Of a stretch of 64,000 bases of DNA, positions 8,665-63,430 are shown one piece after another. This DNA comes from Phoronis australis. Lineage: Eukaryota > Animalia > Phoronida. Every line of letters begins with the position of its first letter. Position 1 is the first letter of the stretch. The notes below the pieces were generated by a model. The model was not told the origin of the DNA and made no database searches. It was given only the letters and a program-made list of their open reading frames with translations. Made by a program: the position numbers and the translations under genes. The stretch is from assembly GCA_002633005.1 (NCBI GenBank), contig NMRA01000167.1, positions 364,460-428,459 on the forward strand, given 5' to 3'.

Positions 8665-11067
8665 AAGTGGCGGGAAACGCTTGCCTCCTAAAACGTCACT
8701 TCCGGAGTAGCGGACGAGTAATTTATAAAATTACGAAAAGCTGTAATTAAGTAGAAAATATGTCTAGGATAACCAACCAACCTTATTTTAGCTCAAAATG
8801 ACATGGAAAAAGGTTGCCTTCGCCTTTAAAAGGTAGCTATACTTTGAGGTTGTGCGTAGATGGAGATTGAATAATCAAATCCAGTAATTAATTTATTATA
8901 TGATAACCCCTAATTAGACAAATGAAACCTATTGTTAATTAAGTAATCAAATACAAAGAGTAACTACGCTAGTGCCCTTTTTAAGATTACTTCGTTAATC
9001 AATAAACCAAAATAATCAGATGTCTTATCTGCTATCCAAGCTAGGACTCTCCACTTGTTGAACGTCTGTCCTGTTGGTGAATCTTCGAACTACACACACA
9101 CACTGTATAGCGACAGTGTACTCGCTGGTCACCGTCTCTGGTGATGCAACATTTGCAGGCAATTTCTTCTACCCGCGATTCTTCTTGCTGGTCACAGTCT
9201 CTGGCTGATGACGCAACACTTCAGGTAGTATCTCACTACTCACAATGCAAGTGACAAGCTCTTGACCTTGCCAAGATCCTTTCTAGAATCTTCCACGAGA
9301 TGGCTCTGTCGCACAATTGCTTCTGTACACCGTAGCAAGTCTTTATGCTTCAACTACTATAGCGCATCTAATTATCTTGTAGATTTCAGCCCATAATATA
9401 ACATTCTACTTATTAAGTGATTGGCTAATAAAACCACAGGATCATATCCAATTATATTATTGGCTGTTACCATTTGTTCTCAGAATTTTCTAGAATCTCT
9501 AGAGTACTTTGACCCCAGAACCCAAAATTGTAAACACCATCTAAAATAGATTTTGACGTTAAAGTACATGTCAACAAGTCTGACCCCATGATTTAAAAGT
9601 ACATATGCACAAATTTTAGGCACCTTGAAATGGATCTATTCTTACTAATTACTTAATCAATATTTATTCTGACAAAGCTGTTTTCTCAAAAATGGTATTG
9701 TTAACTCAAATCTTTGTTCTTCTTGCAGCGAAGACCCTGAATCTATTGTACATGTGTTCTGTCAGTGTAGATATGTTAAAATTTTGTGGAACAAATCACT
9801 GTTTTGGATCAAGTAGATTTTTCACAACAATATGAATATTTCCGTAAAAAGGCTTTGTTAAGTTTTTGCAATAGAAGTTTGTTTGTATATGATATCATAT
9901 TTTGCTTAACGAAAATATTTATATATAGGGAGAACTTTAAAGAAGCTATATACAATTCTTGATAATTTACGAGTTTATATCATAGATTATTGTAAAATTG
10001 ACTACGTGATTTGTAAACAAAAGTTTGAGTTAGAGCGACATATGACTAAGTCGAAAGATCTTGCATAATTTTTATTTAGATTCTCTGTACTTATCATACT
10101 TGGTATTTATTGTTGTTAGTTGTGACTAAGAGTGCACACATGCTACGTATATTATGCTTTGTAAATACGTTTTTTTCTGCATAAATAAAAAAATAAAAAA
10201 AACCCACACTTGCATGTTCGTCACCTCGTCGTAAAACTTACATGTACATCATCATGTAGAGCTAACGGACCGGCGGGGGTGCATCAAAAATCTGTTAGTC
10301 AACCGACACTCACCTTGTTCGTAGAAGCAGTTTAAGTGGAAAAATTATTTTCTACCATAATTTGACGCCTTTTGTAATAAAAAGGAAACTTTGTAGTCCG
10401 TTTTCCAAAACATCACGCTCGTTACAGGACGGTGCACGCGCCATTTCCTAAAATTTTTTGACGTCTTTCGAGAGATGAGAACCGCTTCGCAGCAGCAAAG
10501 TTTGCGCTAAAATTCAGTTTGTTGGAATTAAGATATTAAAACCTTGTAACGAAATGGTAGAGTCAGATGGGCCTTACTGACTATAAGTGGTTAGAAGGCA
10601 GAAGATTGAGAGTGGGATCTAGGGAGCGACTGTTGACACCATTGTCTCACAGAGAGAAACTTGGAAAGTAGTCAAGTCAAGTCCAGTCTAGTGTTGTGCT
10701 GAGTCATCATCTGGAGTGAGGAAATTTCTAATACTTGGGATCTGAGGCTCCTGTTATGTGACTATCATGGGGAAGTTGCAGCTCAAAGTCGCAGCAATGT
10801 TGGTGCTGTAATTTGCTGTATTTGAGTGCTTTTCCATGTTCATTTGCAGCACCCTCCCACAACGCTGGAACTTGATTACGTCAAGAAGTTCTGGGTATGC
10901 GCCGAGTCGTAACGAGACATCTAATCTCGTTTGGCCATGTCTTCGAGGAGATCAGTGAGGTTTGCTCTTGATCCACGGCAGGTGAACAGAAGATCAGACC
11001 GCCTATACTCCTCCTGTCTTTCCTTAAACGTGAATTGACCAAAGCAATTCATGCCCAGACGTCTTAA

Positions 11068-44400: not shown

Positions 44401-47400
44401 TACGTGTATATATTCAAGATAAATCACAAAACACTGTCTTTGCAATTGGTGTTTCGTTTTCTTTGTATCCAACTTGCCTTTTTTAATAAAACTCATGTAA
44501 ATCCTACTTTTGAAGGCCCTTCATGCAACAGCGGGAAATTTTAAAAATATATATAATAGTAAATTAGAAAACACTGAATAAAATATAGTGAGTGAAAGTT
44601 TCACGTGTATTTGTCCAGTAATTTCTGAGATACGATGTTCCGAAATTGGCTAAACTTGGACATATCCATTACTGTGACGAAAAGCAGGAGGTGTTTACAT
44701 CATGTTCGTTGTCAGAACTGATAAGAAATACAGGTTCTTGTTCCTATGACAGGGGGTCCAAAGACCGTGACGCTGCAGGGTATAGACGGTGTTAGTCGAG
44801 TTCAGGGAGGCGAGTACGTAGTAAACAACGGCTCGATCTCCGTATTGCAGTGTATGGCCAAAGGATATCCGTCAATTGCCATGGAGTTCGTGGCAGGAAA
44901 TACGAAGTCGAGAGATGAGAGAAGGCACACAAGTACAGGTGGCGTAGTTGAGGTTACACAGACGATGACCATAGTGCGTACGTTCGCTTCGGATCAGCAG
45001 GAGAAGTTCAACTGTAGAGCTGTGAACACTCGTGACAACAGAATAAGAGCTAATGCAACGATCAAGCTTAAAGTTGTGGGTAAGTCAACGGCCTAACGCG
45101 ACACTTTTGTTCAAGAATATGTTAGAAATATGCAATTTGCACCTTTTGCGCTAAACTGAGTGGAATACCAGAAAAAAGCAATGACCATAAAAGTGATAAT
45201 TTGAAGTAATTTGATTTCGTGACCTAGTGAAGGGCTTGAAAAAGTTAGAGATGGTCGAACTGAACGCATTATAAAAATGAGACAGTCTCGTCCCCTCTGG
45301 CGTACCAAAGGGGGTAGGAGAGGTTTGTGTTTTTGCCACCTTTCTGATCTAATTTTCAGGGACTTCTCCCAAGTTCACCCCCCGTAGAGCTCAACTTTTA
45401 CCACCTTTGCACCTGAAGTACACGTATATTATTTTTTGACCACCTGTCCATTCTTTGGTTCAATGATTGGAATACATGAAACCTGTGGAACACGCAGCCA
45501 ACTCTCGTTATGACATTTTCAGGATCTTACTAATCTTCATGCCGTTGAATTTAGACCGCTCAATGTTCTGACCATATTTTTGCAGTTGATTTATACTATA
45601 TCGATTCGACCGAACAAAGGGTCTTAGTTACCGCAATACTCCATCCAAATGCTAAGCATGGGTTGAAAGCGTCGCTGAACATGAAACAGAAATGCTCTTA
45701 CAACCCCGGTACGTCTGCATGGAGATGAAATACAGACCTGTTATTGTACATTTCACGTAGACTTCTACGCTAATCGTGAGTGCATAAAGAAACAAATGGA
45801 GAACTTGCCGGAACTGAAAGGTGTTCAAGACGAAAAGAAATTGACATTTAGTCTCAGTAGTGTGCGTCGAAGATTTGACGAACCTCGAAGCTCTCCAGGG
45901 AAATGTTTCATGACAGTGACTTAAGATTTGACACAGAAATTTTTAATTTTGTTCCTGCTTCACAATCGTTACTAGAACAAGGTTTAACCAGGTAAATAAA
46001 AACTAACTACATTCTAAAAACACTTTATATAGAAATCATCTCAATAATTAGCTGCTATTGTGCGTGTACATTACCTGAGACTGCCCTTTTACCTAAGTGA
46101 TATTTATATATTTTTATGAAATATTCATGTGGAGTGTAAGACCAAATTCCAAAAATTTCTGTTATAAGCCCACACCTTTAAGTACATGTAAGAGCAAACC
46201 TGGTATTAGGATGAAAAACGTGTAGCTGCGGTAAGTAACAGGACGTTCTAGTGGCTTGAAGAACTTTAGCGATCAAACTGTTTTGGAGAAGCCTGGACTT
46301 GTCGGCATATAACCTCCAGCATGAGCACTGCAATGACAAGTTGCAAAGCTCCTTGAAAGCGCCTGCGTCGAAGAGACAGATACATGTACTACAAGAGAGG
46401 ACAAATACATGTACTAGGCATTCATTCATAACATCTTTCTTAAGCTGCTACTGTTGCTTATTTCACAAGAATGACACACATAGCTGAGGCTTCTGATTTT
46501 TTTGAAAACTTTCGGCAGTCTTGTCAGCCTTCGCGGATGAACGTGGTTCTCCAAGTGAAAGAAACAAAGGCTCTCTGTTGTTGCAAAGTTGCTGCAAGCT
46601 GTCGTCGTAGGTGTTTCACAGTTGCTCTGCCATATGTTATGTCCACACGCTGGCACTCCGTGCTGTTTGATTGATTTTCTCCAGGGTCGCTATCCTAGAG
46701 ATGAATAAGTAAGCACCAGGTTTGACTGGTATAGAGATGTCTGACAAGAATCGGGAGATGATGCAACGACCCTGTGAAGTTAGTGTTGATCATGATCCCT
46801 TTGTTACCAATCAGCTGCCGAAGAGATATAAAGAGAGTGAGGGAGGGAGATGAGAGAGAGGCAGCCATGGGATGCACGAGTAACCGATACATTGAAGTCT
46901 GGTGATAATATTATGATGGGGGCTCCTCACGACCGAGAATTTTATCTTCAGCAGGTGGGTATCGCAAGTTAATCTCAGGTCCTGATGACTGCTATCTCTG
47001 GCAAGGAATAATGCGAGAAGTTAGTGGCGACGCATGTACCTTTGCTCTGCAGGTCTGATGGATTTGTTCTTAGCTGTTGGAATGCCGTGTTTGGATGGAA
47101 TGGTAGAATGGAACAGTATATAGACATTGGTTCCACTGTCAAACTTTTGGGGCTTAATGGCGTCTGACTGCTCTCCATGCATGCGCGCAGTCACCGGTTG
47201 TCACGCAAGTTCATTTCTATAAGGGAAAGAACAGAGCAGTGTTGTAAAGATCGAGGTTGTCTGACGTGAGGGTAGCGTGGTTATGGCACACGACTTGTCT
47301 GACACCGTATAACCTCTCATCTTCCCCCAGTGCCTTAGGTCACTTTTAACATCACATACGTCAACATGGGATCAACAAATGAACAGCCCTGAAGTCTCAT

Positions 47401-50400
47401 TATTGCTTAGAACATCTGCCAGCATGCTATGGCGTGCCTTTAGATTCCACATCCATATCCTATTGTAGAAACAACTGGGTACAAAGACCCACCTCATAAG
47501 TCAAACACATCGCTGGAGATATTCAAGATAATGTCTCTTTTCCACTGAGTGCTCATTTTGACCCAGTTCCACCTAAACTGAGTGTTATGATCTATTGTCA
47601 AGGTACAGCACTGGGTAAGAAGTTCGTCGCTGATTCGTGTGGCTGTCACAAATAGCTTCTTTCATGCACGACATACTGCAGTTACTCTGATGGAGAGGGC
47701 TGCTGCAATAAACACACCGACGGACGGGCTGCTTGGATTGATGATGACATGGACCAAGAGCATAATTTGGGCGGAATCATTTACAATGAACGATGCACAA
47801 TACTAGCAGGAAGAAGGCACTGTTGAGGGACATATTTTGTTGTACTGTATTACCGAGATGGTGATTTGACTTACGATCCATAAACAGATCAAAGAGTAGA
47901 ACCCACAACAACACTTATTGCTTTGGATCGTTTATGATATCCGAAAAGGCCTTATGACTGAACATATGTCGTCGGCTGATCGAAAACACAAGACCTTTTT
48001 GTAACAAATTATCTATCAAACGCTGGGGTCCTGCCTAAGGCTTGGTTACAATCTTCGTTCATTGAAAGATTTAATGTGTTTTTTAATTAAATCAAATTGT
48101 GGCCATTGTAATATTAAAAACCGGACGATTGCCGCACAAATGAAAAATATCCGCCTGCATTATGGCCCTCAAATATTAAAGCTGATTCGCAATGTTCAGA
48201 AGTCTCTCTGCCGACCAGGCGACTGCATTGTGACATTGATTTCGTCATCAAATGCCAACGACTCCATCTGATCCCCACTTTCTCCATGTTGAAGCCAGCT
48301 AATGCCAGAAGTTTGTCACAACATGATTTCAAGAGACTACAAGAAAAGTTGCTTTCCACTGAGTTGAGTAACAATAGGAAAAGTAAAATAAAGTTGCTTG
48401 AGGAGTACAGCAATCTGTCACGTGAATTACGTTCATCTGTTGTATTCCTGATTTGGATTTCCATTGAGCAGTTACTGAAAACCTCTTGCAAAGCAGTGAC
48501 AGAAAACAGGAAAGTTCGGCATGCTAGTAAGAACGTCAGTCTTAAACGCAATTATGGCTACAAGGTTGTCGTCAATTTGTCTAGTACTCCAATTAGTGAT
48601 GCTGAAAGAGCACTCTTTAGCAAAGGGTTAACCTTCGGTATCCCCAATCAACACATCAATGCCATGCCATTGGGCACTAAATTATTCTAAAACAACACCA
48701 CTTCTACCCTAATCCCTGACAAAATGAGGTTATAACATCGCCTTCGGGAACTGTGTTATCGCTACACCTATGCATGTAGATATAACAGTAAACAACTTCA
48801 GAATGTCACACGGGATAAGTACCAGGGTTTGTATTTTCTGTCACAACGTCAAGACATCACCATCGCGCGTCCTGGCAAAGGCAACAGTATTGTGATCATA
48901 GAAAAGATTGACTGCCTCTCTGAGTTCCATGACATCGTTAATGACAGTTCTAAATTCGTCAAGCTCGATCATGACCCGACAGCTAAACGCGAACAACATC
49001 TACAGAACTGTTTATATAATCTTAAACGGACAGGTGCATTGGACCTGGACACTTACAATGGTATAAGACCATGCCGGTCAAAGCCAGCACTTCTGTACGG
49101 CCTCCCTAAGACACGCATGGATGGTGTACCGCTGCGACCTATTGTATCCTGTGTCGGAAATTACACTCATGAGCTTGACAAATTCTTAGTTAAAATTCTC
49201 AAACTTATTAGTGAGAATGACGCACTTAAAGATTCTTTTCAGTTTGTTAATGAAGTCCGGGCACTTAATAATAATAATGATAATGATAATAATCATTTAT
49301 CGTACATCCTAGGCTTTGCCTACTCATACATAAATACATAAATTCAAACGTATATTCAGAATATTTACACGGAGAGCAGTTCTTCTCTTAAAGCCATAGC
49401 CTTCTGAATATACAATGCGAGGCGCTGGATGCCGTTATGATTTTTCTGTTGGAATGAACTAACAAGAGGATAGTTAGCATTCACAAGCTCTGGTAGAGGA
49501 TTTCTTCTTAGGTCTCCAAGAACAGAGCATCGACACAAGAAATGAGACTCATCTTCAATTTCACCCAGACAGCATATTCCGCATTTTCTCTCACGTCTTT
49601 GAATACCCATATGCGTCCTTTTCTCTATGTTAACTAAGTGACCTGAACATCGAAATTGCGCGTAAACAATTCACATATTGCTTGCTAACAAGATCACATT
49701 TAATTAGACCATAAAATTCATGTTTACATGTATTTGACCTACCTATTTCCAGTTACCATACCTGTACGCCACATTCCAATAATCTCTGTTTGAATACAAT
49801 AATAAAACCAGCGCTATTGCCTGGGCCAAACAACCACACTTCTGCCTAGCCGTACTTATACAACATTTCTTTGACACTGTGTGCCCAGTTACAATTACCA
49901 TTTTCACCTTGTTCCCTAAGCATACTATAACACTTCAGTGGGTACCCATGTTTTTCCATATCGACTGCAGTAATTTTGTCCGATAGATAATTGGTTTATT
50001 TTGTAATTAACAATTGTCTCCCACATTCACCACGAACCATAGCATTTGGTGTTTTAATACTCAATCAGTATGAACTTTTCAATAGATTCACACATTGATG
50101 TGCATAAAATAAACGAGAAATATCTACACTATCAAATGCCTGACCACTCCAATTCAGTAATATGATTATTATCAGGCTTTGTAGTGTATACAGGCTCTGA
50201 CAAGCTTTGTTTTATAATATTCCAAACTCTATTAGGATTCCTCACTGACTCACAAAGCTCACCTTGTTTATCGTTATAGTATCACCTTCTCGTCATTTTA
50301 CATAACTTTTTGTATTCATTTCTACTAGCAAGATAATTTCTCTGGTCTAATTCACTCCGAGACACCCTAAATTTTCGCAGTAGACGCTTCTTTTGTAGTT

Positions 50401-53400
50401 TCCTCTCTTTGCACTCACTGTCAAACCATGCGGGTCTACGTGGTTTTCTTACACACCTGTTTTGCCTCACGAACATGCCCGCTCGACATGACTGGAGCAA
50501 GTCCACTAAGCCTTTAACACTCTCATTTTTGTCAAAGTCAACACAGCTTATAATTTCTCGACAATTAACTTTTGGTTCCTGGCTTTGTAATTTTCCTAAA
50601 AATACACCTGCTTTCTCATTATGCCATCTATATCTTACTCGTTCTTGCAATACTATAGAAGGTCCAACAGTGTCTTTCTGACATAATTTTGCAGGGGTAC
50701 TGGGGGTAAAAATTAAAGGAAAATGCAACGATAAATCACATTGCAATACTTTAAAATCTTGAATGTACTCGAACAACGATATCTCGGCAAGAACATAATC
50801 AATGGTGCTACAACCTCTCGTCGAAACAAAAGTAAAATTGCCATCAGGATCATATTTCAATCTACCATTAACAATGTGGATACCATGACCCATACACAAA
50901 TCAATTAAAGTTTTACCAAAATTATTAGTTTTGTAATCTTGGTTTTTCCTTGGTTTGGCAAAATCCTCCTCTACACAGACACAGCTATCTTCTACATGTA
51001 TAACACGGACACTTAATGATGCACCATTTATGGGTAGTCTAGATGTTTGCAGCCTCTTCACTAATGTACCTGTAGGTGAAGTCATTGAATTGTGTCTTAG
51101 CAAGGTGTATACTGATAGTGACGAGGTCCATAAATTGACTCGTGACCAATTTCGTAAGTTACTCACAATCGCAGTTAAACAGAACCATTCTCTGTTTGAT
51201 GATAACTTTTACGATCAGATTGACGGAGTGGCCATGGCTTCACCCCTGGGACCAGTGGTAGCTAATATTTTCATGTACAATCTCGAGACTGAGGCTCTGG
51301 CTAGTTGTATACCGATTGTAAACCGCAATTTTATCGTAGGTATGTGGACGATACGCTTGTTGTGTTTTCATCCAAGAACTCAGTCATTACCTTTTTCAAT
51401 CACATCAACAATACACATCCATCCATCAACTTCACCGGTGAATCTGAGCAGCAGTCGTGTTTATCGTTTCTAGATTTATTGATTAAACGTGAGAATAGCA
51501 CCGTTGTTACATCTATGTATCGTAAACCTAGTTTTTCTGGGCTTTACTTTAAATTTGATGGTTTTGTGCCGATCCAATACAAGAGGGGACAAGTTAGTTG
51601 CTTGTTACACCGTGCCTAGAGAATTTATCCCACCAATTTAAATTTTGATAGTGACGTAGGTAGGATTTTCCATTTATTGTGTACATGTACCAGTGGTTAC
51701 TCTCTGAATTTTTCGAATATCTGTAAAAGGCACTTCCTTTCAAAAATTAATGAGGCAGATAAGGTAGCTGTTATTGGACCTGAGGAAAAGAAAGTTTGAT
51801 TTTATCTTGGTTACACCGTGCCAAGTAGTATAAAATTGAAACGTCAATTATCTCGCCTTACTCATTGCATAGACCCAGCCGTTGTTTTCAAAACTCTTTC
51901 CAATATGCTTTGTAAACTGAAGTCACCCATCCCTTTGTTGAACAAGAGCAATGTTGTTTATCCGGTTGAATGTGACAACTGCAAGGAATTCTATATCGGA
52001 CTCACACAGAGACGCCTCTGTGGCAGGCTGAAAGGACATCACATCTCTGAGAAAAGAAACATTTATAGGCATTGTGTAAGAAACAATCATCAAACCTGTT
52101 CTGTTGTGTTATCTGCAGAGAAGCTAAAAAGGAACTACTATACATTAAAGAGTCATCTGCCATTCAGAACCAGCATGCTACTGATTATTTGAATAACATG
52201 CAGAGCTCAGTTGCCCTGCAACTATGGTGATGACCAGCTACTGAATAGATTACCTGTATCTCTCACTTCACTTCATAGATGTCATCTGAGCTTTATGTTT
52301 GGAACTTGCTGTCCTTTATAAATATCCTTATGGTATCTCATGAATAGACGGAACGTTGATTTAACATGAACTTTTTCATTTGTGCGGCGATCCTCCGGTT
52401 TTTAGTGTCTTTTTGTAAGCCAAAATGGGTCACATCGAATAAAAAATAGATGTTGATGTGGAATGTTACCCTGAACCAATAACCAATTACAATTTGCTGT
52501 CACCTTGTGTTGTTCAAATCATTTGAAAGCACTCTGTGACTTCACGTGAGCTTTAAAATGTTTGTCAAAACACGGCCGCTTACAACACTTAAAAATCCAC
52601 TGGCTAGAATTCATTGTCATTGCAAAATATGAAATCCCCGTATAACGGTTCAAGAAGCTTTTTTTTTAAATGAAAACCTAAACAAACGACATCATGATCA
52701 CCCGTTTGTGTATTTTTCAGTTGACGGCAACTGGGCAGCGTGGAAGGAATGGGGAGACTGTTCATCGACATGCGGAAATGGTTGGCGCGAAAGCATTCGC
52801 ACGTGCTCCAACCCGCCACCTTCTTCCAATGGAGGTAGATTCTGCCCTGGACACAATTCGCTTTTTGGCGTTTGCACTGGAAACTTCCCGTGTGACTACT
52901 ACAAGAGAGGTTTGTCAAGCTTTAATAGGCCTGTTTATTGTCTGGTAAAGGACTTTTTCAATTGCAGATAAATCGGTGAAGGAAAATGCACACCATGTGA
53001 TTTATACATGTGCATGTAAATACTTGTACATGTACACTGTCAACCTTCGCTGTGTTCTTTCACCTAGAAGCAGGTACATGTAGCTGTTTAAACTGCCATT
53101 CCCCGACAACATAAGTTAACATATATATATTTATTAAACGTCTGAAAGGGCAACGTTTTATCATCACGTTAGCACCATTAAGAAAATGTCAGTTCTTTCT
53201 GAAAAACCGGTGTAAATTCAAATTCATGCCGCTTTGAGTTTCAAATTTGTTCTGGAAGTTCTTACACAGCGAAGCGAGTCTTGCATCTTTGTGTGAAACC
53301 GCGGTGATATCAGACATCAGTGACGCGTCTTAACACAACGTCCCAATTCATCATCTTGTTGATTGCTTATATATTTGTTGAGAGGTCAATAAATTTGTGA

Positions 53401-56400
53401 CTGTTTCCTTGGCGATAGACTGAAGTGGAGTAAAATGCTCACGCCTCAACCCGTATGCTGAAGAAAAGCTGTTGTTTAGATCTCCCAAAAGGTACCAAAA
53501 CCGAACGGCCAATAACGGTTTTCTAAGACGTTCATTTACAAGACCCATTTAGCTCACCAACTGGGAACATGAAATAGTTAATTTATCTGAAGAAATGGTT
53601 TGAGTTCTAGTGATAAATATCGATTATTAAAATGCATTTCATGAATATGGAATTTCTGAAAAGAATATTCCACAAAGGTTGACCATCACTTAAGGGGATT
53701 CCGGTGTAAACAACTTAACGTTTTTAACCTCTTTTAGTCGTATTGAAAGACTTTGAACCATTAAAACGGTGGAACTTTATTAGTTAGACCACATCCTCTG
53801 TTTAAGCCAATCCTATTTGGTGTGCCTCGGGCTACAGACATTAGGTCGCAAGTTCTTGTACTGAGATTTCTTAGTTCACAGTGTAGATACGCTGGATGTA
53901 TCCACAACAAAACGTTTTTCAGCGGCTTTTGTTTGGTACACATGTGAATGTAGATTTTGGCCTGATAATGTTTTAGGAACCCAATTCTAAACAAATTTAC
54001 CATAGTACATGTACACGCAAATTTACATTTACTCCACCTGGAGACTGCACACCAACAGTGAGACATGGCCTCTAACGTTGTGCATGCCGCCATGTACATG
54101 TATAGTGTACACGGAATGGCTCTACTTTCCCGTATTTCACGGCATATACTTAACGACGTTTTGAATGCCCGTATTTACACATATAAGGGCGAGAGCGTCT
54201 CATTTTAAAATTTTCCTGGTTATTGTTCAGCGTTTATTTCTCAGCCGTTGTTCGTGGATTGTGATTAAACAAGCGTATAATTTGCAAGATGGAAAAAAGG
54301 CTTAAAAGAAGGTTTGGAAGGTTTTAAAGACATGTGCATACGCAATAGAAAATTTTTAAAGGATTTTCTTTCAAACTCATGGGACCTAGTGAGTATGAGA
54401 ACAAAGACTGGGGTCTGCTGTAATTAGGAGTCATTATCGCATTCTTGAGTACGATTAGGTTATGCGCAGTGTTTGTGAGAGGATTTGGTTAACCGTGCTT
54501 AACTAAGCCACAGTTGATTTTCAAGGGACAATTTTAGGAGCGTTCCCCCAGGTCATTGGGGAAAAACGATTTCATTGACGCACTGTCACGCCTTAACTTG
54601 GGACAACGAACCATTAAAAGTAGAAGTGAAAAATGAGAAAATTTATAAGGCCCATATAGCCGTCAAAGTGACCAATAGACTTTGTGGGTCAATTCACTCA
54701 AACCTAAGTTTTTCTAAAACGATTCTTTTTGTCTTTTTGAAAAGCGAAGTAATTTTTGTTGGTGTTTTACAGCTTATGGATATCTCTGGTCTTGGGTGAA
54801 GGATCCTGTAGCTGTAAAAAAAGTGTCGATCTTTGCCGCCTTGACAGCCATCTTTTCCGGCTTAGTACTTTATTCGTGGTACATGCGCACCGTTCACATT
54901 CGGGAGACCAAAGACTTGATAAACCAAGACAGGCACGACTTTGACGCCTTTGTAAGAAAACTAGCTGCCTACCTACAAGGAAACGAGGAAACATCTGAAA
55001 TAGAAAGCAAAGACGACGAATGTCCATGGGAAAAAAGCCGCAGCGTTGTGAGACAAAAGTTAAAAGAGCTTAAAGGTACAACGGGCACTAATGAAACGCC
55101 AAACGTTGCCCTGAAATCTTTCCTACAATCGTGTATGATGAAGCGCAAGAACGGTGGTCAATCAATGGACAGTGAAAATGCAAACACTGTGAAACAGAAG
55201 CACAAGCTGCAGTTGAATGCATTTGGATCGCGCATAAGTTTGCTGAAGTCGCAAAGCTGTAGCAAATTGATGAACCGTGACGGCTTGGACAATGAGCTTG
55301 CTTATCGAAAACAAGAGTTCGAGAATAGACTTGGCTCGTGCATGAATTTGTTGTGGCGAAAGAGCAATCCTGGGTTGGTGGACAGAGACTGTTTGAACAA
55401 GGCGTTTGCTAACTTGAAGCACGAGTTCCTGAAGACTAAGGTCGTCCAAGCAAACAAGACGTCGTGTTTTAATACTATCAGAACTGCCCTGAATGGTTAC
55501 AATCTCTTTGTACATGCGAACGAGCAATATGAAATAGTCGCAGACAAAGCGCTGGTGCGTGACACCCAGCGACATTTACTTGCACTTGCCTTGAAGTCAC
55601 AGTACCAGGATGCGTTAAATGCAGAAGATGACGAATCGATGCAGTGGATTGCGCGTGTGGTCGAAGCAAACGGTCTCCAAACCTTTATTGACGTTGACCT
55701 CAAAGTGGGGTACGAAACGCGAAAGTCGCAACAATTTTTTCAACAACTGAGCCTGGCAATCTTCAAAATGAATAGAAAGCACCTCCACGATTTAAAACGA
55801 CTGACACAACCTTCAGCAGAACTGCATGACACCCTTGCTGCAACACTCATCGTGCTTGGTGAACGAGAGGAGGACACACGTGACTGGAGATTTTGCCAAA
55901 CTATGTGTCATGATTCAAACACGTTATACAACAAGGGCCTGTTTTGGCGCATACACCGTTTCAAGGTAGATGAGGTATCCTATCACGAAGCGTCAAGAGT
56001 TCTGGAAATGTTAAACAAACATAACATTCAAACGGTGATGGAAAAGAGCTCTTTGGCCGGAAGACTCCACCAATGGGCACATGCGGCGGCATGTCAAAGG
56101 CTGAACACCACGGAAAGGCGGATGTCTTTGCCATCAAGAACGTGTGATGAGCATGGCCAACAACATATAAGAGATTCTGAAAAATCAGTACAAAAAGCTG
56201 TTTCACACGATACTACTACGGATTTTACTGCTCGACATCACTTTTCAGTAACAACTGTATCTTCAAGACTGAAACAGAGAACAAGTCCCTGGAGGAAGAC
56301 TTCCGCAGAAATCCCCAGGCACATGACTAGATATACAGTGCGTTCACACTCACTAAGACCACATGAGTCAGCCACCTCTTTCTCAACAAAGCATCGCAAA

Positions 56401-56676
56401 GTTGCTCCACAGCCACAACTTTTGCACGGTCGCGACCTAGCTTCGCGAAAAAGTATCTCTGATACCGCATCACCGCCAAAAGGAACAAGCTTGGCAGCTT
56501 CAGCAAACCCTGGCCAGGAGACACATGTACACCCTAGCATTCTTCAGCAGGCAAACACGCCTATAGCGGCCAAAACGTTGGAGAAAGAGTGCAAAGGAAA
56601 CGAGTCACCTGAATCGAGTAGTGTGGAGAACAAGAAATTGGAGAAACATCACAAAGATATTGTCAGCGAAGACTAG
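17134..56676 (+). CDS. Multi-exon type-I membrane receptor (SEA-like? - TSP1 - 13x Ig-like - TSP1 - TM - cytoplasmic tail with dynein-MTBD-like domain); 5' end not identified
   Basis: 18 exons with AG/GT boundaries splice in one frame. Internal exons are all phase 1-1 (159, 303, 363, 297, 312, 279x4, 324, 138, 177, 336, 336, 327, 189 nt). Summed CDS is 6606 nt from 17134 to the TAG at 56676 if all exons are included. Confidence 0.8.
18636..18888. mobile_element. Short MITE-like element
   Basis: Imperfect TIRs catgcacgcacccag ... ctgggtacgctcatg. A similar right end occurs at ~6800-6834. Confidence 0.5.
21442..21600 (+). CDS. Exon: thrombospondin type-1 repeat (absent from the ORF track)
   Basis: attgcag|GA TGG ... 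TGC A|gtaagt. Translates to GWTLWSSWSKCVPISGCGHGNRTRTRRYC...GCFRPC (WxxWxxW, CxxG, RxRxR motifs). Confidence 0.85.
22164..22466 (+). CDS. Exon: Ig-like domain 1
   Basis: cag|GT GGA CCA ... ATG T|gtaagt. Ig pattern LKLECKTD..P....W....HNEVDVVCLARN. Confidence 0.9.
22585..22947 (+). CDS. Exon: Ig-like domain 2
   Basis: ttcag|TT GGT CCG ... ATT T|gtaagt. VTCKTDDVSPDVNITW...NDGCKGRCKGEN. Confidence 0.9.
24658..24954 (+). CDS. Exon: Ig-like domain 3
   Basis: ctcag|AT GGG CCA ... TTG T|gtaagt. VEGEPVNVTCSTRKCNPSCNISYFW...HNQTLTCVITN. Confidence 0.9.
25284..25595 (+). CDS. Exon: Ig-like domain 4
   Basis: tttgcag|TT GGC CCT ... GCA G|gtacaa. LTCKSD....W...DDQKTITCLGQN. Confidence 0.88.
25861..26139 (+). 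CDS. Exon: repeated Ig-like domain, copy a
   Basis: cttgaag|AC GGA CCT ... AGT T|gtgagt; 279 nt; LTCLTPGCYPAC...DDHMRVIRCTASN. Confidence 0.85.
28580..28965 (+). pseudogene. Decayed partial copy of the Ig-4 exon, interrupted by a ~125 bp MITE
   Basis: Aligns by eye to about 25335-25595. It has indels, lacks the 5' acceptor, and the donor is changed from gt to gc (tgcag|gcaga). Confidence 0.75.
28676..28800. mobile_element. ~130-bp MITE family, copy 1
   Basis: Core agcaagacttcgcgagattac is shared with 40071-40191 and 43478-43606. Confidence 0.65.
29237..29515 (+). CDS. Exon: repeated Ig-like domain, copy b
   Basis: ctcgaag|AC GGA CCT ... AGT T|gtgagt; 279 nt; open frame. Confidence 0.85.
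30038..30690 (+). repeat. Diverged ~125-bp direct repeat pair (30038-30165, 30569-30690)
   Basis: cttagaaatcca(c/t)gattagtc...atcaaaaatgggcat...gatattcat...tataaccaaa occurs in both. Confidence 0.7.
32195..32410 (+). pseudogene. Second decayed partial copy of the Ig-4 exon
   Basis: ggccagagtataaacacc...gatgatctgaagacgattacttgtctcggacag matches the Ig-4 exon. It carries deletions and has no donor. Confidence 0.75.
32672..32950 (+). CDS. Exon: repeated Ig-like domain, copy c
   Basis: cccgaag|AC GGA CCT ... AGT T|gtgagt; 279 nt; open frame. Confidence 0.85.
33128..33406 (+). CDS. Exon: repeated Ig-like domain, copy d
   Basis: cttgaag|AC GGA CCT ... AGT T|gtgagt; 279 nt; open frame. Confidence 0.85.
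33905..34840 (+). mobile_element. Degenerate CR1/L2-type LINE fragment (APE endonuclease plus RT remnants)
   Basis: MGDLNART, NNFGNALIDMC, SLVDFLL and SDHLPI (endonuclease); LLYADD (RT). Many stops and deletions. Confidence 0.8.
35262..35585 (+). CDS. Exon: Ig-like domain 9
   Basis: tttgcag|AT GGG CCA ... TCA G|gttgga. VSIACRTDEVNP...HHASRVVCTANN. Confidence 0.85.
36310..36745. mobile_element. Old MITE-like inverted repeat
   Basis: ctacttttgtgcgaactcaa (~36395) is the reverse complement of ttgagttcgcacaaaagtag (~36643). Outer arms are imperfect. Confidence 0.55.
37301..37438 (+). CDS. Exon: N-terminal half of Ig-like domain 10 (absent from the ORF track)
   Basis: ttttcag|TT GGA CCA GCA ... 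TTG G|gtaagt. GPANVYFHQAGGFMKDNTVFAWPGHVVSLKCSTDFIRPDASMYFL. Confidence 0.8.
39144..39320 (+). CDS. Exon: C-terminal half of Ig-like domain 10 (absent from the ORF track)
   Basis: cattaag|GC CAG ... ATT G|gtaaga. ...EIEVKLSIKESERGQEITCKAFNSRDNDLAAIGKVSIDVI supplies the second Cys and the G strand. Confidence 0.8.
40071..40191. mobile_element. ~130-bp MITE family, copy 2
   Basis: Same core as the copies at 28676 and 43478. Confidence 0.6.
41120..41455 (+). CDS. Exon: Ig-like domain 11
   Basis: tttcag|TT GGT CCC ... TCT T|gtaagt. LHLNCITDKVLP...HDKSELTCEARN. Confidence 0.88.
41651..42108 (+). mobile_element. Kolobok-like THAP element, left end (truncated at an N)
   Basis: ttaa|aggtgaaggcaacc; near-identical to 7528-7986; THAP ORF from 41916. 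Confidence 0.85.
42258..42593 (+). CDS. Exon: Ig-like domain 12
   Basis: tgtacag|TT CTC ATA AAA GGT CCA ... ACA G|gtactg. ISIVCLS...GVITCIAKN. Confidence 0.82.
43230..43426 (-). pseudogene. Possible THAP remnant
   Basis: MTKRCIVSDCDNS....VALFTMP resembles a THAP N-terminus. The rest is degenerate. Confidence 0.35.
43478..43606. mobile_element. ~130-bp MITE family, copy 3 (best-preserved TIRs)
   Basis: cgttcagtaacgctaggacct ... aggtcctagcgtctactgaacg. Confidence 0.7.
44753..45079 (+). CDS. Exon: Ig-like domain 13
   Basis: tgacag|GG GGT CCA ... GTG G|gtaagt. VLQCMAKGYP...QQEKFNCRAVN. Confidence 0.88.
48100..52230 (+). mobile_element. Degenerate Penelope-like retroelement (RT plus GIY-YIG endonuclease)
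   Basis: VVNLSS..ISDAE..LFSKGLTF, YGLPKT....PLRPIVS, SLDVCSLFTNVP, GVAMASPLGPVVANIFM, RYVDD, SFLD, VVY..ECDNC.EFYIGLT.R.L..R. Confidence 0.88.
49270..51005 (-). mobile_element. CR1/L2-type LINE fragment inserted in the Penelope-like element
   Basis: Minus-strand endonuclease motifs (NNFGKTLIDLC, IVNGR, GCSTIDY, AWFDSEC) and C-terminal CGICCLGEIEDESHFLCRC. (ATT/ATC)n tail at 49270-49294. Flanking repeat cgg(g/a)cacttaat. Confidence 0.8.
52721..52909 (+). CDS. Exon: thrombospondin type-1 repeat
   Basis: ttttcag|TT GAC GGC ... AGA G|gtttgt. VDGNWAAWKEWGDCSSTCGNGWRESIRTCSNPPPSSNGGRFCPG is a canonical TSP1. Confidence 0.92.
54773..56676 (+). CDS. Terminal exon: transmembrane helix plus long cytoplasmic tail
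   Basis: Phase-1 acceptor gttttacag|CT TAT GGA is in frame with the 626-aa ORF. Hydrophobic VSIFAALTAIFSGLVLYSWYM at 54823-54885, then a helical/coiled region, an MTBD-like segment at about 55747-56094, and a low-complexity S/T/H-rich end. Confidence 0.85.
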
Positions 56677-57800
56677 ACATCATTACGTACTACGAAAGGC
56701 ACAAAGAATTCTGACTATTCAAGTCATGTGGCCACAGCTAACCAATTCTCTGCCCAGTGTATGAAAGTAAACATGAGTCATGTTAAAAATCTTCCCTCGT
56801 CGAACTTTGAAATCAGATGAACAAGATACACGTATCAGAATTTTATAAAACTGAATAAGTATACATGTGAGCCACCACGAGGTGAAAGCATGCCTACGAA
56901 ACATAAAAAAAAAACAATATCAACACCAAAACTCCTAAATATTCGACAGATTGCATACTTCAATCTAAATTGAGCCGTTTCGATACCTGGCACAAAATGT
57001 GACGCATTTCAATTTTCCAGGCATTGAAGATCTGAGAGCAAAAAGAAATCCAGCGGGATAATGAATGGGGTAAATCTAAAAATTACACATAACATCTGAC
57101 CATAACAAAGCGAGATTCAGAAAACGGTACCCTAGAGTCAAGACTTAATTAGCATTTCCGCCTGGTGTAGATATTTGACATCAGGTTCTCGATTCTCCAA
57201 TCAATAATGAGATCTAACGGTTTACAAAAATTATTGGAGCACACTTCGCATAATATAATAAAATAAGTTCACACGACAGTAGCGTTCCAGGCTGAACATT
57301 GGTTTGGTTACAGAACTATTGCAAGTTACTCAAAAAGGGGAACAGAATTCAATTCAAATCACGCACTAGTATAAACTTTTGTCTAAGAAATGAGAAAATA
57401 ATGGCATCTGATTTTTGAACAAGTGCCTTTTCGTTTTAGATAGCTGAATGTGATTATCTACATTGTACAGCTGTACACCATACTAGTTTCGTTTAGTGGG
57501 AAAAAGACGCAAACGGATACGTGACCAAAAATAGGTGAAAGTCAAACCATTCAATACATCGTGGCGAATACCATACTCAAGTAGACACCATTATCAGTGA
57601 AAATCCGTAGCTTAGTACATCCCTGCGATGGGTAGCCTCTGTGGCGATGTAGTGTGACCAGTGCTGTAGAGGACACAGAAGCGTAATGCCCGGAGACAAT
57701 AAGCTGCCGGCGTTTTTTAATCGCCCTTGGGATGTGTCCTGGGGGCCCTTCGGTCCCCCTTTATCCGCCTATGGCATGACACCGTAATTGTTACTTTATC

Positions 57801-58413
57801 CACAGGCGTCCTCAGCTTCTGATCGTCCCCAATACACTACATATAATACTACAAGGTATGACACTTCCGACCAGAAATTCCACGGGTGCTTCACTTCAGC
57901 CGTCCATAGCAAACATAAAACTCAATAAATTTACACAAAACAGAGGTTCAACAAACCATGAAGAATTGTTCTTTCTCCCAATACCATTTACGGTGTCCTG
58001 TTGCCGCTCGAGGTCAAGGACGGTACGGAAATTGCCGGTGAGTTACGGAAGTACCGACATCGGTCGCGTAAAGTCACGATGTCGGTACTTCCGTAACTCA
58101 CCGGCAATTTCCATACCGTCCTTAACCTCGAGCGGCAACCGATGGACGTGCGCGGGGTTTTTTTGTGAACATTTTTGTTCTTTGACTGCGAATTTCTTAC
58201 GAAGTCGCCGGAACAGGACACCGTGAATGGTATTGGGAGAAAGAACAATTCTTCATGGTTTGTTGAACCTCTGTTTTGTGTAAATTTATTGAGTTTTATG
58301 TTTGCTATGGACGGCTGAAGTGAAGCACCCGTGGAATTTCTGGTCGGAAGTGTCATACCTTGTAGTATTATATGTAGTGTATTGGGGACGATCAGAAGCT
58401 GAGGACGCCTGTG
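57801..58413. mobile_element. Foldback MITE with 8-bp TSD (P- or hAT-like termini) and an internal hairpin
   Basis: TSD ACTTTATC at 57793-57800 and 58414-58421. Near-perfect TIRs of ~200 bp starting CACAGGCGTC. Second palindrome at 58000-58139. Confidence 0.9.
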
Positions 58414-58867
58414 ACTTTATCATGAAAAACTAATCTAACATTCATTACTGAGCGAGCATATGTGTATGTTACTCCGAACGCTTCAAAGACTAATTACACA
58501 AACAAAATGTTTCACAAGCAACGATGTTTCAATGATTACCCGGTACAGTGTGCACACGTGCATGAACTCGAGTGCGCGAACTTGAAGTGGGCATTCTTGA
58601 AAGCAGCTGTTGTTATTTTTAACATGATTTTAAAGTTAGTAAAAAATCAGATACTACTGACCAGTCCAAGTTACACGATTATCTGTTATCTGCACTCACC
58701 AGCTCCGCCTTATCGAATCATCCACGTTTCGACATAAGGTTTTGGGACGAACATGACCATTTGATCTTGCCAAACAGTGAGTTGGAGGTATTTTCTAACA
58801 GCAAACAGGAGCGTTCGTCTGTTTGAACAGATATTAAAATATCCGATTCATTTCTCTGAATCTTCGT

Positions 58868-59655
58868 TCACAGTCAGCTGTACTCCAATCGCCAGAAGGC
58901 AATTGTTTATGCAGAACGAACAACTGTGGACGAAACACTAAGGTTTATTGAGAGCTAAATAGAATGAAAGTTACCAGCGCAAAATGGCAGACGGCAGAGA
59001 GAGGGTGCTGACTACAGCTAAACGACACCTGGCGGACTGGCGTGATTTCTCTTTCTCCACAAAAACATAAACTAACAACAAATAAGTAGGCTAATAAACG
59101 TGAGGAAACTTTCACTGTCCTTAGTTAAGTACGTAATCCTGTAAATACGAGGGTGGGCGGTGAGAACGTGGCGTCCGGAGGCAGCGACAATGTCTGAGGA
59201 ACAGGCGGACGCTGTAGATCAGGAGGCAACGTGACTGACGAAGAATCGGCTGACACCGGCATACCAACAGGACGAGTGTCATTGGAGTACGGTACATCGT
59301 CGTCATCCAGCGTCGGAGCTGGTGAAGGCAACTCGGCACGCGCAGAGAAAAACTCTGGCACAACGTAGCAATCATCCAGTTTGACTTTGTAAGATGTGGA
59401 GCGTAGTTGTCAACCAACAAACTTGCGGATATAACACCAGTCGTCCTCGATGGACACTACCAAGTATCGATCACGAGCCTTTGTCTTGTCGCGACCTGCG
59501 TGGAGGTACTCTAGATCACCTACAGCCAAAGAGGTAGGGCGAAGCCGGTGTCGTCTCTGGGGATTCTTCGAGCTTTTGCTGTGTGAATGATTCACAGTCC
59601 GGGCACGGTCATTTGTTGTAAGATCATTTCTCTGTCAGACACAAGGAGTTGTTCA
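58868..59655 (-). mobile_element. LTR retrotransposon (Gypsy-like) 3' fragment: pol C-terminus, polypurine tract, LTR remnant
   Basis: LAVGDLEYL...DKTKARDRYLVV and terminal RSHRPPSYLQDYV. Purine tract ggagaaagagaaa on the minus strand at ~59046-59058. LTR limits are approximate. Confidence 0.65.
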
Positions 59656-59659
59656 TTAA

Positions 59660-60043
59660 AGGCGAAGGCAACCCTTTTCAATGTCATTTTGAGCTAAAAT
59701 AAGGTTGGTTGGTTATCCTAGACATAATTTCCACTTAATTACAGCTTTTCGTAATTTTATAAATTACTCGTCCGCTACTCCGGAAGTGACGTTTTAGGAG
59801 GCAAGCGTTTCCCGCCACTTGGTTTTGCGTTGACTTTACCGTGCGAATCTGTTCTGTTCTACTTTTGTTTTGTGCTGTTTTTCAACAATTGTCGCCACCA
59901 CTTTCCATCGGCGAGTACTCTGCGGCAACATAGGTTAGTAGAGAACTAAACTACGTTGGATTTAGGGATAGCTCCAACACTTTAGACAAGTCCACAATAA
60001 ACTTATCAAAGTTTGGCTCACCGATCTGTTCACTGGACGACGA
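59660..60043 (-). mobile_element. Kolobok-like element, right end in inverted orientation, fused to the duplicated exon
   Basis: ttaa|aggcgaaggcaacc TIR carries the right-end variant gcaagcgtttcccgccactt (reverse complement of 8665-8684). Confidence 0.8.
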
Positions 60044-61913
60044 ACTGTGAAAAAGTGTCGATCTTTGCCGCCTTGACAGCCTTCTTCTCCGGCTTTGTAC
60101 TTTACATATGGTACATGCGTATCGTTCACATCCGGGAGACAAAAGCCTTGATAACCAAAGACAGGTACGACTTTGAAGCATTTGTAAGAAAACTAGCTGC
60201 CTACCTACAAGAAAACGAAGGCATATCTGAAACAGAAGGCAAAGACGAAGAATGTCCATGGGAAAAAAGCCGCAGGGCTGTGAGACAGAAGTTACAAGAG
60301 CTTAAAAGTACAGAGGGCACCAATGAAACACCACACGTGGCCTTGAAATCTTTCCTTCAATCGTGGATGGTGAAGCACAAGAGCGGTGGTCAATCAGTAG
60401 ACAATGAAACTACAAACACTGTGCAACAGAAGCACGAGCAGCAGTTGAATGCATTTGGGTCGTGCATTAGTTTGCTGAAATCGCACAGCTGTAGCGAATT
60501 GATGAACCGTAACGGCTTGGACACTGAGCTTGCTTATCGAAAACAAGAGTTCGAGAATAGTCTTGGCTCGTGCATGAATTTGTTGTGGCGAAAGAGCAAT
60601 CCTGAGTTGGTGGACAGAGACTGTTTGAACAAGGCGTTTGCTAACTTGAAGCACGAGTTCCTGAAGACTAAGTCATCCAAGCAAACAAGACGTCGTGTTT
60701 TTCAACTGTCAGAATTGCATTGAATGCTTATAATGGCTTTATACATGCAAACAAGCAATATAAAATAGTTGCAGACAAAGCGCTGGTGCGTGACACCCAG
60801 CGACATTTACTAGTACTTGCGTTGAAGTCACATTACCAGGATGCGCTAAATGCAGGAGATGATGAATCGATGCAGTGGATTCCGCGTGTGGTCGAAGCAA
60901 ACGGTCTCCAAACCTTTATTGACGTTGACCTGAAAGTTGGGTACGAAACGCGAAAATCGCAACAGTTTTTTCAACACTTGAGCCTGGCAATCCTCAAAAT
61001 GAACAGAAAGCACCTGCACGATTTAAAACGACTGACACAACCTTCAATAGAACTGCACAACTCCCTTGCTGCAGCGCTCATCATGCTTGGTGAACGAGAG
61101 GAGGACACACGTGACTGGCGGTTTTGCCAAACTATGTGTCATAACACAAACACGCTATACAACAAGGGCCTGTTTTGGCGCATACAACGTTTCAAGGTAG
61201 ATAGTGAGGTTTCCGATCACGAAACGTCAAGAGCTCTGGAAATTTTAAACAAACATAACATTCAAACGGTCATGGAAAAGAGCTCATTGGCCGGAAGACT
61301 CCACCAATGGGCACATGAGGCGGCGTGTCAAAGGCTGAACACCACGGAAAGGCGATCGTCTTTGGCATCAAGAACGTGTGATAAGCATGGCCAAGAGCAT
61401 ATAAGAATGTCTGAAAATTCACTGCAAAGAGCGGTTTCACACGACACCACTACGGGCTCTACTGCAAGACGTCACTACTCAGTAACAACTGTATCTTCAA
61501 GACTGAAACAGAGAACATTCAAGTCCCTGGAGGAAGATTTCCGCAGAAATCAACAAGCACAAGACTAGAGATACAATGCATTCACATTCACCGAAATCAC
61601 ATGAATCAGCGACATGTTCCTCAACAAAGCATCGCAAAGTAGTGCCACAGCCGCAACTTTTGCAAGGTCGAGACCTAGCTTCGCGAAAAAGTCTCTCTGA
61701 TACCGCGTCACTGCCGAAAGGGACGACCTTGGGAGCTTCAACAAACCCTGGCCAGAAGACAAATGTACACCCTAGCATTCTTCAACAGGCAAACAAGCCT
61801 ATAGCGGTCAAAACGTTGAGGAAAGAGTGCAAAGGAAACGAGTCACCTGAAACGAGTTGTGCGGAGGACAAGAATTTGGAGAACATCACAAAGATATAGG
61901 CAGCGAAGACTAG
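60044..61913 (+). pseudogene. Frameshifted duplicate of the terminal exon
   Basis: Colinear with about 54812-56676. Frameshifts near 60671 (-1), 61517 (+4) and 61882 (-1). The acceptor region is replaced by transposon sequence. Confidence 0.85.
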
Positions 61914-63430
61914 ACATCATCACGTACCAAAGGGAACTAAGAATTCTCACTATTCTGGTCATGTGATCGCAGTTAACTACTTTCCCACCAGGTGCGTGAA
62001 AGTAAAGGTCGTGTTAAAAATCTCCCCTCTTCGAACTTTTGAAATCAGGCGAACAAATACACGTACTAAAAATTGACAAAACTGAATAAGCCTATATGTG
62101 TAGCCCCGTGAGGTGAAAAGCATACCAACATGTTAGAAACGCGGAAAAAAACAGTATCAACACCAAAACTCAACAATTTACGCGTGATTGAATACTTCAA
62201 TCTAAATTGAGCCGTTTCGATACCTGGCACAAAATGCCATGCATTTAATTTTCTCCAGATATTGAAGATGTGAGAATAAAAGAAATCCAGCGGGACAATA
62301 AAATTATTGTCGTTGTAAAAAATCCACATATAACCTCACCCTTAACAAAGAGAGACTTAGAAAATAGTGCTCTAGAGCCACTACTAGCATTTGCGCCTGG
62401 TGTAGATCTTTGACATCTGGTTCTTGATTCGTCAATCAATGATGACATCTAACGGTTTATTTAAATTGTTGGAGCACACGTTGCATCAGAGGTGAAGCAA
62501 TTGGCGTAACCTGAACTATACTTCAATAGGCTCACACGACAGTAGCGTTCTAGGCTAAACATTGTATTGGCCCTTACAGAACAACTGTGCAGTTTTCTGC
62601 GCGTTGTTTAAAAAGCAATGGAATTCAAATATCACGCAACAGCGTAAATTTTGCCTCAGAAATAAGAAAAATAGGAAACAATTCGAAATGTTGAAATACC
62701 CAAATACATCAGATTTTTTATCAAGTGTCTCTGTATTGATATATGAATCTGACTATCTACATCAGACTTGTTTTGTTAAGTGAGAAAAACACCCAAACGG
62801 ATACCAAAATCTTTGAAAGTCAAACCATTCGATACCATGGCGAATTCCATACCCACTGATGTAGATATACCCAATATCAGGAAAATCCATAGCCTAGTAG
62901 AACCCCACAAGGGGAAGCTTCTGTGGCAATGTAGTGAGACCAGTGCTGTAGGTGTAAAATAAGAGGCAAGTAGACGCTCAATGCCCACCGTATCACCTTG
63001 AGCATTAATCTGCATTGAATTCGCAAAACCTGACTCACAAACATGTACACTGTAGGCCCAACTACACATAGTAGGAAGGCAAAGGTCAGCGAGCATTTCA
63101 AGCGTCCTCTGAAAGGGGGGGGGGGACATAATTTTAAGGGACACAGGCGCGTAATGCCCAGAAACGATATGCTGGCGGCCTTTTTTAATCGCCCGTGGGG
63201 TATTTGTGTCCTCTGGGCCCTTCGATCCCCCGGCCTTTATCCGCCCATGGTATGACGCCGTAATTGGTACTTTATCTTGAAGTATTAACTCTACCTTTCA
63301 TTACTTGGCGAGCATATACATATTTATGTTAATCCCTACACTTCAAAGACTAATGACACAAACACGATGTTTCAAAAGCAACGATGTTTCAATGAGTACC
63401 CGGTACCGATGTGCACACGTGCATGCACTC
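60044..63430 (+). repeat. Segmental tandem duplicate of about 54812-58570 (terminal exon plus downstream flank)
   Basis: Similarity continues past the stop codon (e.g. atacttcaatctaaattgagccgtttcgatacctggcacaaaatg at ~56955 and ~62191) up to gtgcacacgtgcatg. Confidence 0.85.

Follow-up and report, generated by a model that had tools for sequence, protein, structure and literature searches.

Can the dynein stalk's microtubule-binding domain (MTBD) occur in a protein that is not a dynein, and if so, what does it do there? The question is raised by a 64,000-nucleotide stretch of the genome of the phoronid Phoronis australis (contig NMRA01000167.1, positions 364,460 to 428,459; hereafter the window, to which all positions refer). 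The segment 55747-56094 of the forward strand, flagged in an initial annotation as a dynein MTBD-like module outside a dynein, reads in frame as the sequence quoted there and lies within a 652-codon stop-to-stop frame (54718-56676). The somewhat longer region 55687-56118 shares ancestry with the stalk tip and MTBD of dynein, it belongs to a spliced and transcribed gene that is not a dynein and lacks the motor, and it is under purifying selection. The gene product is a predicted type I single-pass receptor with immunoglobulin (Ig) and TSP1 domains and a cytoplasmic MTBD-like domain, for which a role as a microtubule tether is weighed below.

Homology to the dynein stalk tip

An exhaustive HMMER search with the window protein returned 35 proteins at E<=0.001, with one (P0002) dropped as a low-complexity repeat artefact and the remaining 34 all aligning over the flagged region. 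A profile was built from an alignment (A1) of two window rows, 28 of the 35 matches, and six cluster members, leaving out P0002, P0008, P0010, P0011, P0012, P0016, and P0025. Searched against the PDB sequences, this profile gives 59 matches at E<=0.01, 56 of them labelled as dynein or axonemal heavy-chain-sized chains, and recovers yeast, mouse, human, and axonemal dynein MTBDs, with the yeast dynein MTBD the best match (E 8.6e-11). The homology is shown by profile, transitively via the homologs, and together with the fold bears out the central claim of the initial annotation. When the window rows are left out, a profile of the 34 homolog rows gives the window frame 99 bits and a second, tandem copy (described below) 92 bits, whereas the highest score among 1,000 shuffled versions of the domain is 7.8 bits, which places the domain in an informal family of motor-less MTBD-like proteins; this shuffle control leans favourable, as the homologs were originally chosen by likeness to the query. 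The core motifs are intact, with the PP pair reduced to one proline.

Comparisons from the single sequence are weaker. The profile check suggested with the initial annotation divides, with Pfam MT (PF12777; gathering threshold 24) giving no match in the window protein at E<=10, and the A1 family profile reaching the dyneins; among 30 homologs scanned, five match Pfam MT, one above the cut-off. In a single-sequence phmmer search of the PDB the dynein rows appear at E 0.025-1.4, ranked under a match to GDNF (E 0.01, 47 residues) that is rejected as chance, the model of the domain being all-helical and GDNF being absent from the 59 profile matches. The ESM Atlas gives a lead toward PF12777-bearing mollusc clusters at 0.88-0.89, under its 0.9 mark.

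The AlphaFold2 model, which leans on the A1 alignment, has a pLDDT of 90.3 and a pTM of 0.72, and consists of hairpin helices, a CC1-like helix of about 29 residues (the short stalk-like helix already suspected ahead of the module), six MTBD-like helices, and a CC2-like helix, giving the six-helix MTBD between CC1 and CC2 seen in dyneins. Folded from its single sequence, the 652-residue frame yields a pLDDT of 39.9 and is uninformative. Comparison of the model with 48,161 chains using VIA-align gives nine at Z>=8, six of which are dynein stalk/MTBD entries, with the five best matches all of this kind (Z 15.2, 15.1, 13.1, 12.5, and 11.2 over 123-146 residues), including 5ayh_A (Z 15.2, rmsd 4.4, 145 aligned), 3err_B (Z 15.1, rmsd 3.6, 143 aligned), and 6l4p_B (Z 12.5, rmsd 2.5, 123 aligned). 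The remaining three, 9fqr_Xl (Z 10.2), 9ya2_L (Z 9.0), and 9e5c_2e (Z 8.2), have lengths or numbering unfit for a dynein MTBD, and the best unrelated row lies at Z 7.7. Foldseek likewise places dynein-containing entries on top with a probability of 1.00, the best E-value being 1.4e-3 with none at E<=0.001.

That a helical bundle resembles the dynein MTBD by chance or convergence would be in keeping with the missing Pfam MT match, with the weak single-sequence and Foldseek E-values, with helical bundles being able to score Z near 13 according to the VIA-align tool note, and with the dependence of the model on the homolog alignment (pLDDT 40 without it). This explanation is, however, already largely refuted and scarcely credible, given the transitive link through homologs, with 34 of 35 matches over the region, five of 30 scanned matching Pfam MT, and the profile finding dyneins at E 1e-10, and given a structural coverage of the whole domain clearly above the best unrelated row.

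Gene structure, membrane topology, and selection

The initial annotation took the module to be stand-alone, whereas junction reads show that it is encoded by the final exon of a large spliced gene for a single-pass protein with Ig and TSP1 domains. RNA support was drawn from about 18-19% of each of three stranded same-species RNA runs of one study (X1, X2, and X3), aligned to 21500-41499 and 43500-63000 of the window. This animal DNA contains introns, exons for Ig and TSP1 domains, and numerous repeats. The 17 exons of the model join into one uninterrupted 2,088-residue reading frame, with 14 of the 16 introns supported by reads; the gene has 2,088 codons or more, its 5' end lying beyond the model. 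The GT..AG junction from the last Ig exon to the membrane-proximal TSP1 exon is crossed by 22 (X1) and 31 (X2) reads, the GT..AG junction 52909>54773 from there to the last exon by 23 reads in each of these runs, and 12 further junctions between 21600 and 41120 by 4-18 reads each per run. All exons share a common phase, and the exon lengths of the Ig array are all divisible by three. Depth over 54567-56519 in the last exon is 17-29 and strand-specific in X1 and X2, and about 0 in X3, with the gene as a whole (21500-56900) covered in X1 and X2 and essentially bare in X3, suggesting that expression depends on tissue, stage, or individual.

From N- to C-terminus the protein comprises a TSP1 domain, 13 Ig-like domains, a second TSP1 domain, one predicted membrane helix, the helical hairpins, the MTBD-like domain, and a basic disordered tail. 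Ig-type Pfam matches at E<=0.1 occur in 11 of the 14 Ig exons, with two above the curated cut-off. The predicted membrane helix has a Kyte-Doolittle value of 1.79 over 19 residues, the highest window in the model. The 1,471 residues before it hold 34 N-glycosylation sequons, 57 cysteines, and four WxxW motifs, compared with four sequons, 11 cysteines, and no WxxW in the 596 residues after it, and such a steep fall is the pattern expected of a membrane protein of type I. With its Ig domains in tandem and, after them, a single membrane helix (predicted from hydropathy), the protein has the arrangement of type I Ig-superfamily receptors.

It is improbable that this gene model is wrong, whether because the protein is secreted and its hydrophobic stretch forms no membrane helix, or because the Ig array represents two genes. 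Doubt is raised by the hydropathy of just 1.79, by lysines N-terminal of the stretch, by a strict scan of 1-21400 that gave no candidate for a signal-peptide exon, and by the junctions 41455>42270 and 42593>44753, whose introns (41456-42269 and 42594-44752, in or across 41500-43499 and outside the read-aligned regions) were predicted from splice signals and phase, without reads. Against this, sequons and cysteines fall sharply past the helix, all exons keep the same phase in one open frame, and the connection from Ig through TSP1 and helix to the MTBD is supported by reads.

The MTBD-like domain starts 287 residues inside the predicted membrane helix, with the stop codon 190 residues past its end. 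No Walker A motif occurs in the cytoplasmic part and no AAA family has a Pfam match in the window protein or the upstream exons, in agreement with the earlier remark that an AAA+ ring is absent. The CC1-like and CC2-like helices measure 29 and 22 residues in the model, so that the long (about 15 nm) antiparallel stalk of dynein is likewise missing. The cytoplasmic part contains no ITAM, ITIM, ITSM, NPxY, SxIP, or PDZ motif, and neither transglutaminase-like nor KY Ig-like families match the 16 upstream exons or the last exon. The relatives have similar helical units before their MTBD, with a profile of that unit scoring the window protein at 0.4 bits. The tail has a net charge of +11 over residues 497-600 (104 residues), and the low-confidence single-sequence model shows no secondary structure past residue 496.

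Downstream, the last exon is repeated in tandem along with its 3' flank; this copy is likely a pseudogene fragment, lacking the splice acceptor and the first 45 bases, carrying frameshifts in its coding part near 60672, 61516, and 61882, and showing an RNA depth of 0-0.4 over 60426-62378. Its 5' cut adjoins a high-copy repeat, with loose read ends at 59968-60048. The copies differ by a dS of about 0.19, close to their 3' non-coding distance of 0.21, with dN/dS values of 0.28 for the stalk and MTBD, 0.42 for the hairpins, 0.54 for the tail, and 0.57 near the membrane. In the stalk and MTBD, 15 of 90 synonymous and 16 of 318 non-synonymous sites are changed (Fisher p 0.001), and replacements are rarer there than in either the tail (p 0.003) or the juxtamembrane region (p 0.007). 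These values come from one sequence pair and small counts, and probably understate the constraint, since one branch probably evolved neutrally over some of its length. Within the last exon, constraint is strongest on the MTBD, which is under purifying selection. This bears on whether the MTBD-like segment is a mere passenger, captured and without function, that has been retained only through its position in a coding exon, which we regard as very improbable: the searches made gave no close homolog of the receptor's cytoplasmic part, and the surroundings contain numerous repeats and a tandem copy in decay, but the domain has the lowest dN/dS of the exon, with its core motifs intact and its fold confidently predicted.

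Table 1. Exons, protein parts, and tandem copy of the predicted Ig/TSP1 receptor gene in the window.
Feature	Position	Strand	Basis or remarks
First located exon, TSP1-like	21442-21600	+	Donor 21600 read-supported, acceptor predicted; Pfam TSP_1 E 0.008, under cut-off
Ig array, 14 exons, 13 Ig-like domains	22164-45079	+	X1/X2 junction reads, one frame, Pfam
Ig exons 1-7	22164-22466, 22585-22947, 24658-24954, 25284-25595, 25861-26139, 29237-29515, 32672-32950	+	
Ig exons 8-14	33128-33406, 35262-35585, 37301-37438 and 39144-39320 (one domain), 41120-41455, 42270-42593, 44753-45079	+	
Membrane-proximal TSP1 exon	52721-52909	+	Pfam TSP_1 E 6e-10; junction reads both sides
Last coding exon: predicted membrane helix and entire predicted cytoplasmic part (596 residues)	54773-56676	+	Spliced, RNA-covered
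Predicted single transmembrane helix, 21 uncharged residues	54823-54885	+	Hydropathy
Helical hairpin stack ahead of stalk	55285-55686	+	AlphaFold2 model helices 2-26, 34-58, 62-78, 88-112, 116-128
Short stalk (CC1-like helix, about 29 residues), MTBD-like H1-H6, CC2-like helix	55687-56118	+	Includes flagged 55747-56094
Basic Ser/Thr-rich C-terminal tail, likely disordered	56119-56676	+	
Tandem copy of last exon and 3' flank	60050-62951 (also given as 60050-63430)	+	blastn, 82.6% identical

Within the Ig array, the exons at 25284-33860 are internally duplicated with 70-80% DNA identity; four near-identical Ig exons of 279 bases are spliced in, and the reads pass over a further copy of the 25284 exon, decayed, near 28800-29128. 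Minus-strand joints with CT..AC ends (36043>37522 and 38886>39273) occur in X1 and X2, and suggest a spliced antisense transcript overlapping introns and exons of the receptor. Elsewhere in the window, a dispersed repeat occurs at 7524-7986, 8665-8835, 41647-42108, and 59656-59826 (93-98% identity), whose copies at 7785 and 41907 are Cys-rich and presumably encode a THAP-like zinc finger. Broken reverse-transcriptase-like and endonuclease-like frames in introns, at 48118-52192 and 33918-34292, are taken by us to be of LINE type from their motifs. A long inverted repeat at 57801-58413 (202 bases, 99.5%), with many partial RNA reads, is probably a MITE-like element.

Microtubule contacts and a possible tether

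Mouse dynein numbering was mapped onto the domain from the 6rzb alignment, anchored on K3299 and R3337 of the mouse dynein MTBD as numbered in passages of PMC6629372, with contacts surveyed in 28 non-redundant homologs (eight of 36 rows, being two window rows, three fragments, and three near-duplicates, were dropped). The H1-side contacts are kept in the window domain, with K3299 replaced by R, Q3300 by K, E3304 by D, and R3306 by K, as is K3334, replaced by R. Across the family, all 28 homologs have E at the E3304 position, and 24 of 28 have R or K at R3306. Lost are K3298 (N), the H3 arginine R3337 (Q), and the H6 arginine R3382 (E, with a lysine directly after it). Passages of a Dictyostelium dynein study propose that E3390 and R3469/K3472 form two key salt bridges with α-tubulin, E416 being the proposed partner of R3469, that couple binding to ATPase activation (PMC4298687). 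E3390 and R3469 would correspond to mouse E3304 and R3382. With its H1 half kept and its H6 half lost, the domain is compatible with binding in which signalling to a motor has ceased, and equally with no binding; its microtubule binding is putative.

A possible precedent is offered by the non-dynein chain 9ya2_L, which aligns with the model with an rmsd of 3.0 over 125 residues and 12% identity. By its numbering (to 1457) and resolved length (162 residues) the chain is likely the globular domain of Toxoplasma ICMAP2, with the caveat that the accession list of the source paper assigns 9YA2 differently from the PDB title. In the passages available, ICMAP2 is described as a protein of 1,678 residues, 10% of them resolved, that sits as a dimer on the outer microtubule surface between protofilaments every 8 nm, without a motor (PMC12819142). 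The main text of that paper uses "dynein" twice and "microtubule-binding domain" never, with no dynein likeness of ICMAP2 mentioned in the passages concerned, and the literature searched contained no paper linking the intraconoidal microtubules to a dynein MTBD. In this chain, an MTBD lacking a motor may already have been solved bound to a microtubule.

We tentatively favour, at somewhat less than even confidence, a role for the motor-less dynein-homologous domain of the predicted receptor as a static microtubule tether, supported by the retained H1 contact charges and, as a precedent, by the chain that is likely ICMAP2, a microtubule binder. The Ig/TSP1 rod would bind a ligand or a neighbouring cell, and, some 290 residues inside the membrane, the hairpin stack would stand in for the AAA+ ring and keep CC1 and CC2 at a single register, so that the MTBD could bind without ATP-driven release or stepping, with the basic disordered tail adding affinity through the acidic tubulin tails. 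The module would have arisen by domain shuffling, probably from the invertebrate motor-less MTBD family (hillarin/LTD-1-like and other proteins), and not afresh from a dynein heavy chain. An unlikely elaboration is that the receptor grips microtubules directly, with no adaptor, and that, through the short stalk and its supporting hairpins, pull on the 13-Ig ectodomain could shift the CC1/CC2 register, switching affinity without ATP in a reuse of the dynein register switch.

Several observations weigh against a tether. The R3337 position is Q not only in the window domain but in 23 of 28 homologs, and the R3382 position, E in the window domain, is K or R in only six of 28. The core of the MTBD is weakly basic, with a net charge of +3. 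The window domain forms the longest end branch of the family tree (1.79) and is the most diverged copy, making functional drift possible; this tree is poorly resolved, with bootstrap values unsettled and no dynein rows, and does not fix the donor. Similar folds occur in the non-dynein axonemal or radial-spoke chains 9fqr_Xl, 9e5c_2e, 7jrj_I (Z 6.5), and 7jtk_C (Foldseek), the last two from radial spokes, and radial-spoke heads and necks do not sit on the doublet lattice. The chain 9fqr_Xl may be EFCAB5, which would fit its length; passages of its paper and of PMC12423330 did not confirm this. The same side of the balance includes the two introns predicted without reads, the lack of a signal-peptide exon in the region scanned, and the moderate hydrophobicity of the membrane helix.

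Close behind the tether, and plausible to nearly the same degree, is a receptor built as modelled in which the MTBD fold has been repurposed for protein interaction or dimerisation (signalling or scaffolding), with no microtubule binding. The replaced H3 and H6 arginines, with charge reversed at R3382, the long branch, and the axonemal and radial-spoke chains all favour such a repurposed domain, as do the 10 of 30 scanned relatives that are of hillarin/LTD-1/KY type, a group for which no link to dynein was found in the literature searched. Conversely, the acidic and basic H1 contacts are conserved family-wide, the likely ICMAP2 precedent binds microtubules, and the tail has no ITAM, ITIM, ITSM, NPxY, or PDZ motif of a classical signalling tail.

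Comparison with known systems

The nearest relatives are motor-less proteins, namely transglutaminase-like proteins of hillarin/LTD-1/KY type, together with EF-hand-like, LRR, and coiled-coil proteins that are uncharacterised (E 2e-9 to 1e-3, 17-31% identity). Ten of the 30 homologs scanned have KY Ig-like domains, eight of those with a transglutaminase-like core, and one has LRRs. Of 20 homolog clusters looked up, 13 name an organism, all of them invertebrate (molluscs, annelids, a sea cucumber, and a tunicate), so the similar modules of invertebrate proteins mentioned in the initial annotation do exist, and, judged by sequence, motor-less MTBD modules are widespread among invertebrate proteins; as such, they recur in many eukaryotes. 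Proteins such as XP_071100651.1, WAQ98341.1, PIK57548.1, and XP_067667795.1 share with the window protein an MTBD-like module, usually near the C-terminus, that follows helices of a similar pattern. They differ in that none of the 30 scanned has an Ig C2/I-set or TSP1 Pfam match, and in that a hydrophobic window occurs in just three of 44, each within a globular domain and judged not to be a membrane helix. Close relatives of the receptor's cytoplasmic part were absent from word-index homolog searches and a metagenome contig scan, which is weak evidence that the receptor lacks relatives.

Among these relatives, P0005, P0008, P0010-P0012, P0020-P0022, P0024, and P0025 are mollusc and annelid hillarin/LTD-1/KY-type proteins with an unannotated, mostly C-terminal MTBD-like domain, with the Pinctada protein P0008 holding three MTBD-like copies. 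The P0018 cluster (XP_067667795.1, 356 residues) is a short motor-less abalone protein auto-annotated as "cytoplasmic dynein 2 heavy chain 1-like".

With the dynein heavy chain (PF12777; 5AYH, 3ERR, 6RZB, 6KIO, 8I3J, 6L4P, and 2RR7) the window protein shares the six-helix fold between CC1 and CC2, the core motifs, and the H1 charges, at 10-20% identity. It differs in having no AAA+ ring, linker, or tail, a stalk of about 29 residues continued by hairpins, one proline for PP, and replaced H3 and H6 arginines, and in that its domain sits on a predicted single-pass receptor. ICMAP2 differs from it as a protist cytoskeletal protein with no ectodomain.

In the literature searched, the matches listed for non-dynein MTBDs all concern dynein or its regulators by title, PF12777 appears in genome or transcriptome papers only, and RSP2 together with MTBD in reviews only; "MTBD-like" in passages of TTLL11 papers means an unrelated motif. 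An Ig/TSP1 receptor with an MTBD is not described in that literature, which excludes most subscription papers and leaves absence from print unproven.

The layout of the ectodomain is familiar from the Ig-superfamily adhesion and guidance receptors. Nephrin/Kirre, sialoadhesin, UNC5, and L1CAM are type I proteins with tandem C2/I-set-like Ig domains in same-phase exons, with UNC5 adding TSP1 before the membrane. The tails of such receptors reach the cytoskeleton via short motifs, ZU5 or death domains, or adaptors (ankyrin, ezrin, MAPs), and we know of none that carries a dynein-type MTBD. The dynein MTBD is usually regarded as confined to dynein, and here appears to have moved, by shuffling, to the cytoplasmic side of a large predicted Ig/TSP1 receptor that is expressed, where it is under selection. 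Should it bind microtubules, it would connect membrane and microtubules directly where cells meet, and would offer a natural experiment on an MTBD whose stalk register is fixed and whose H6 arginine is missing. Should it not, the fold would have a second role in a family of invertebrate proteins, the hillarin/LTD-1-like ones among them, that is widespread and unstudied.

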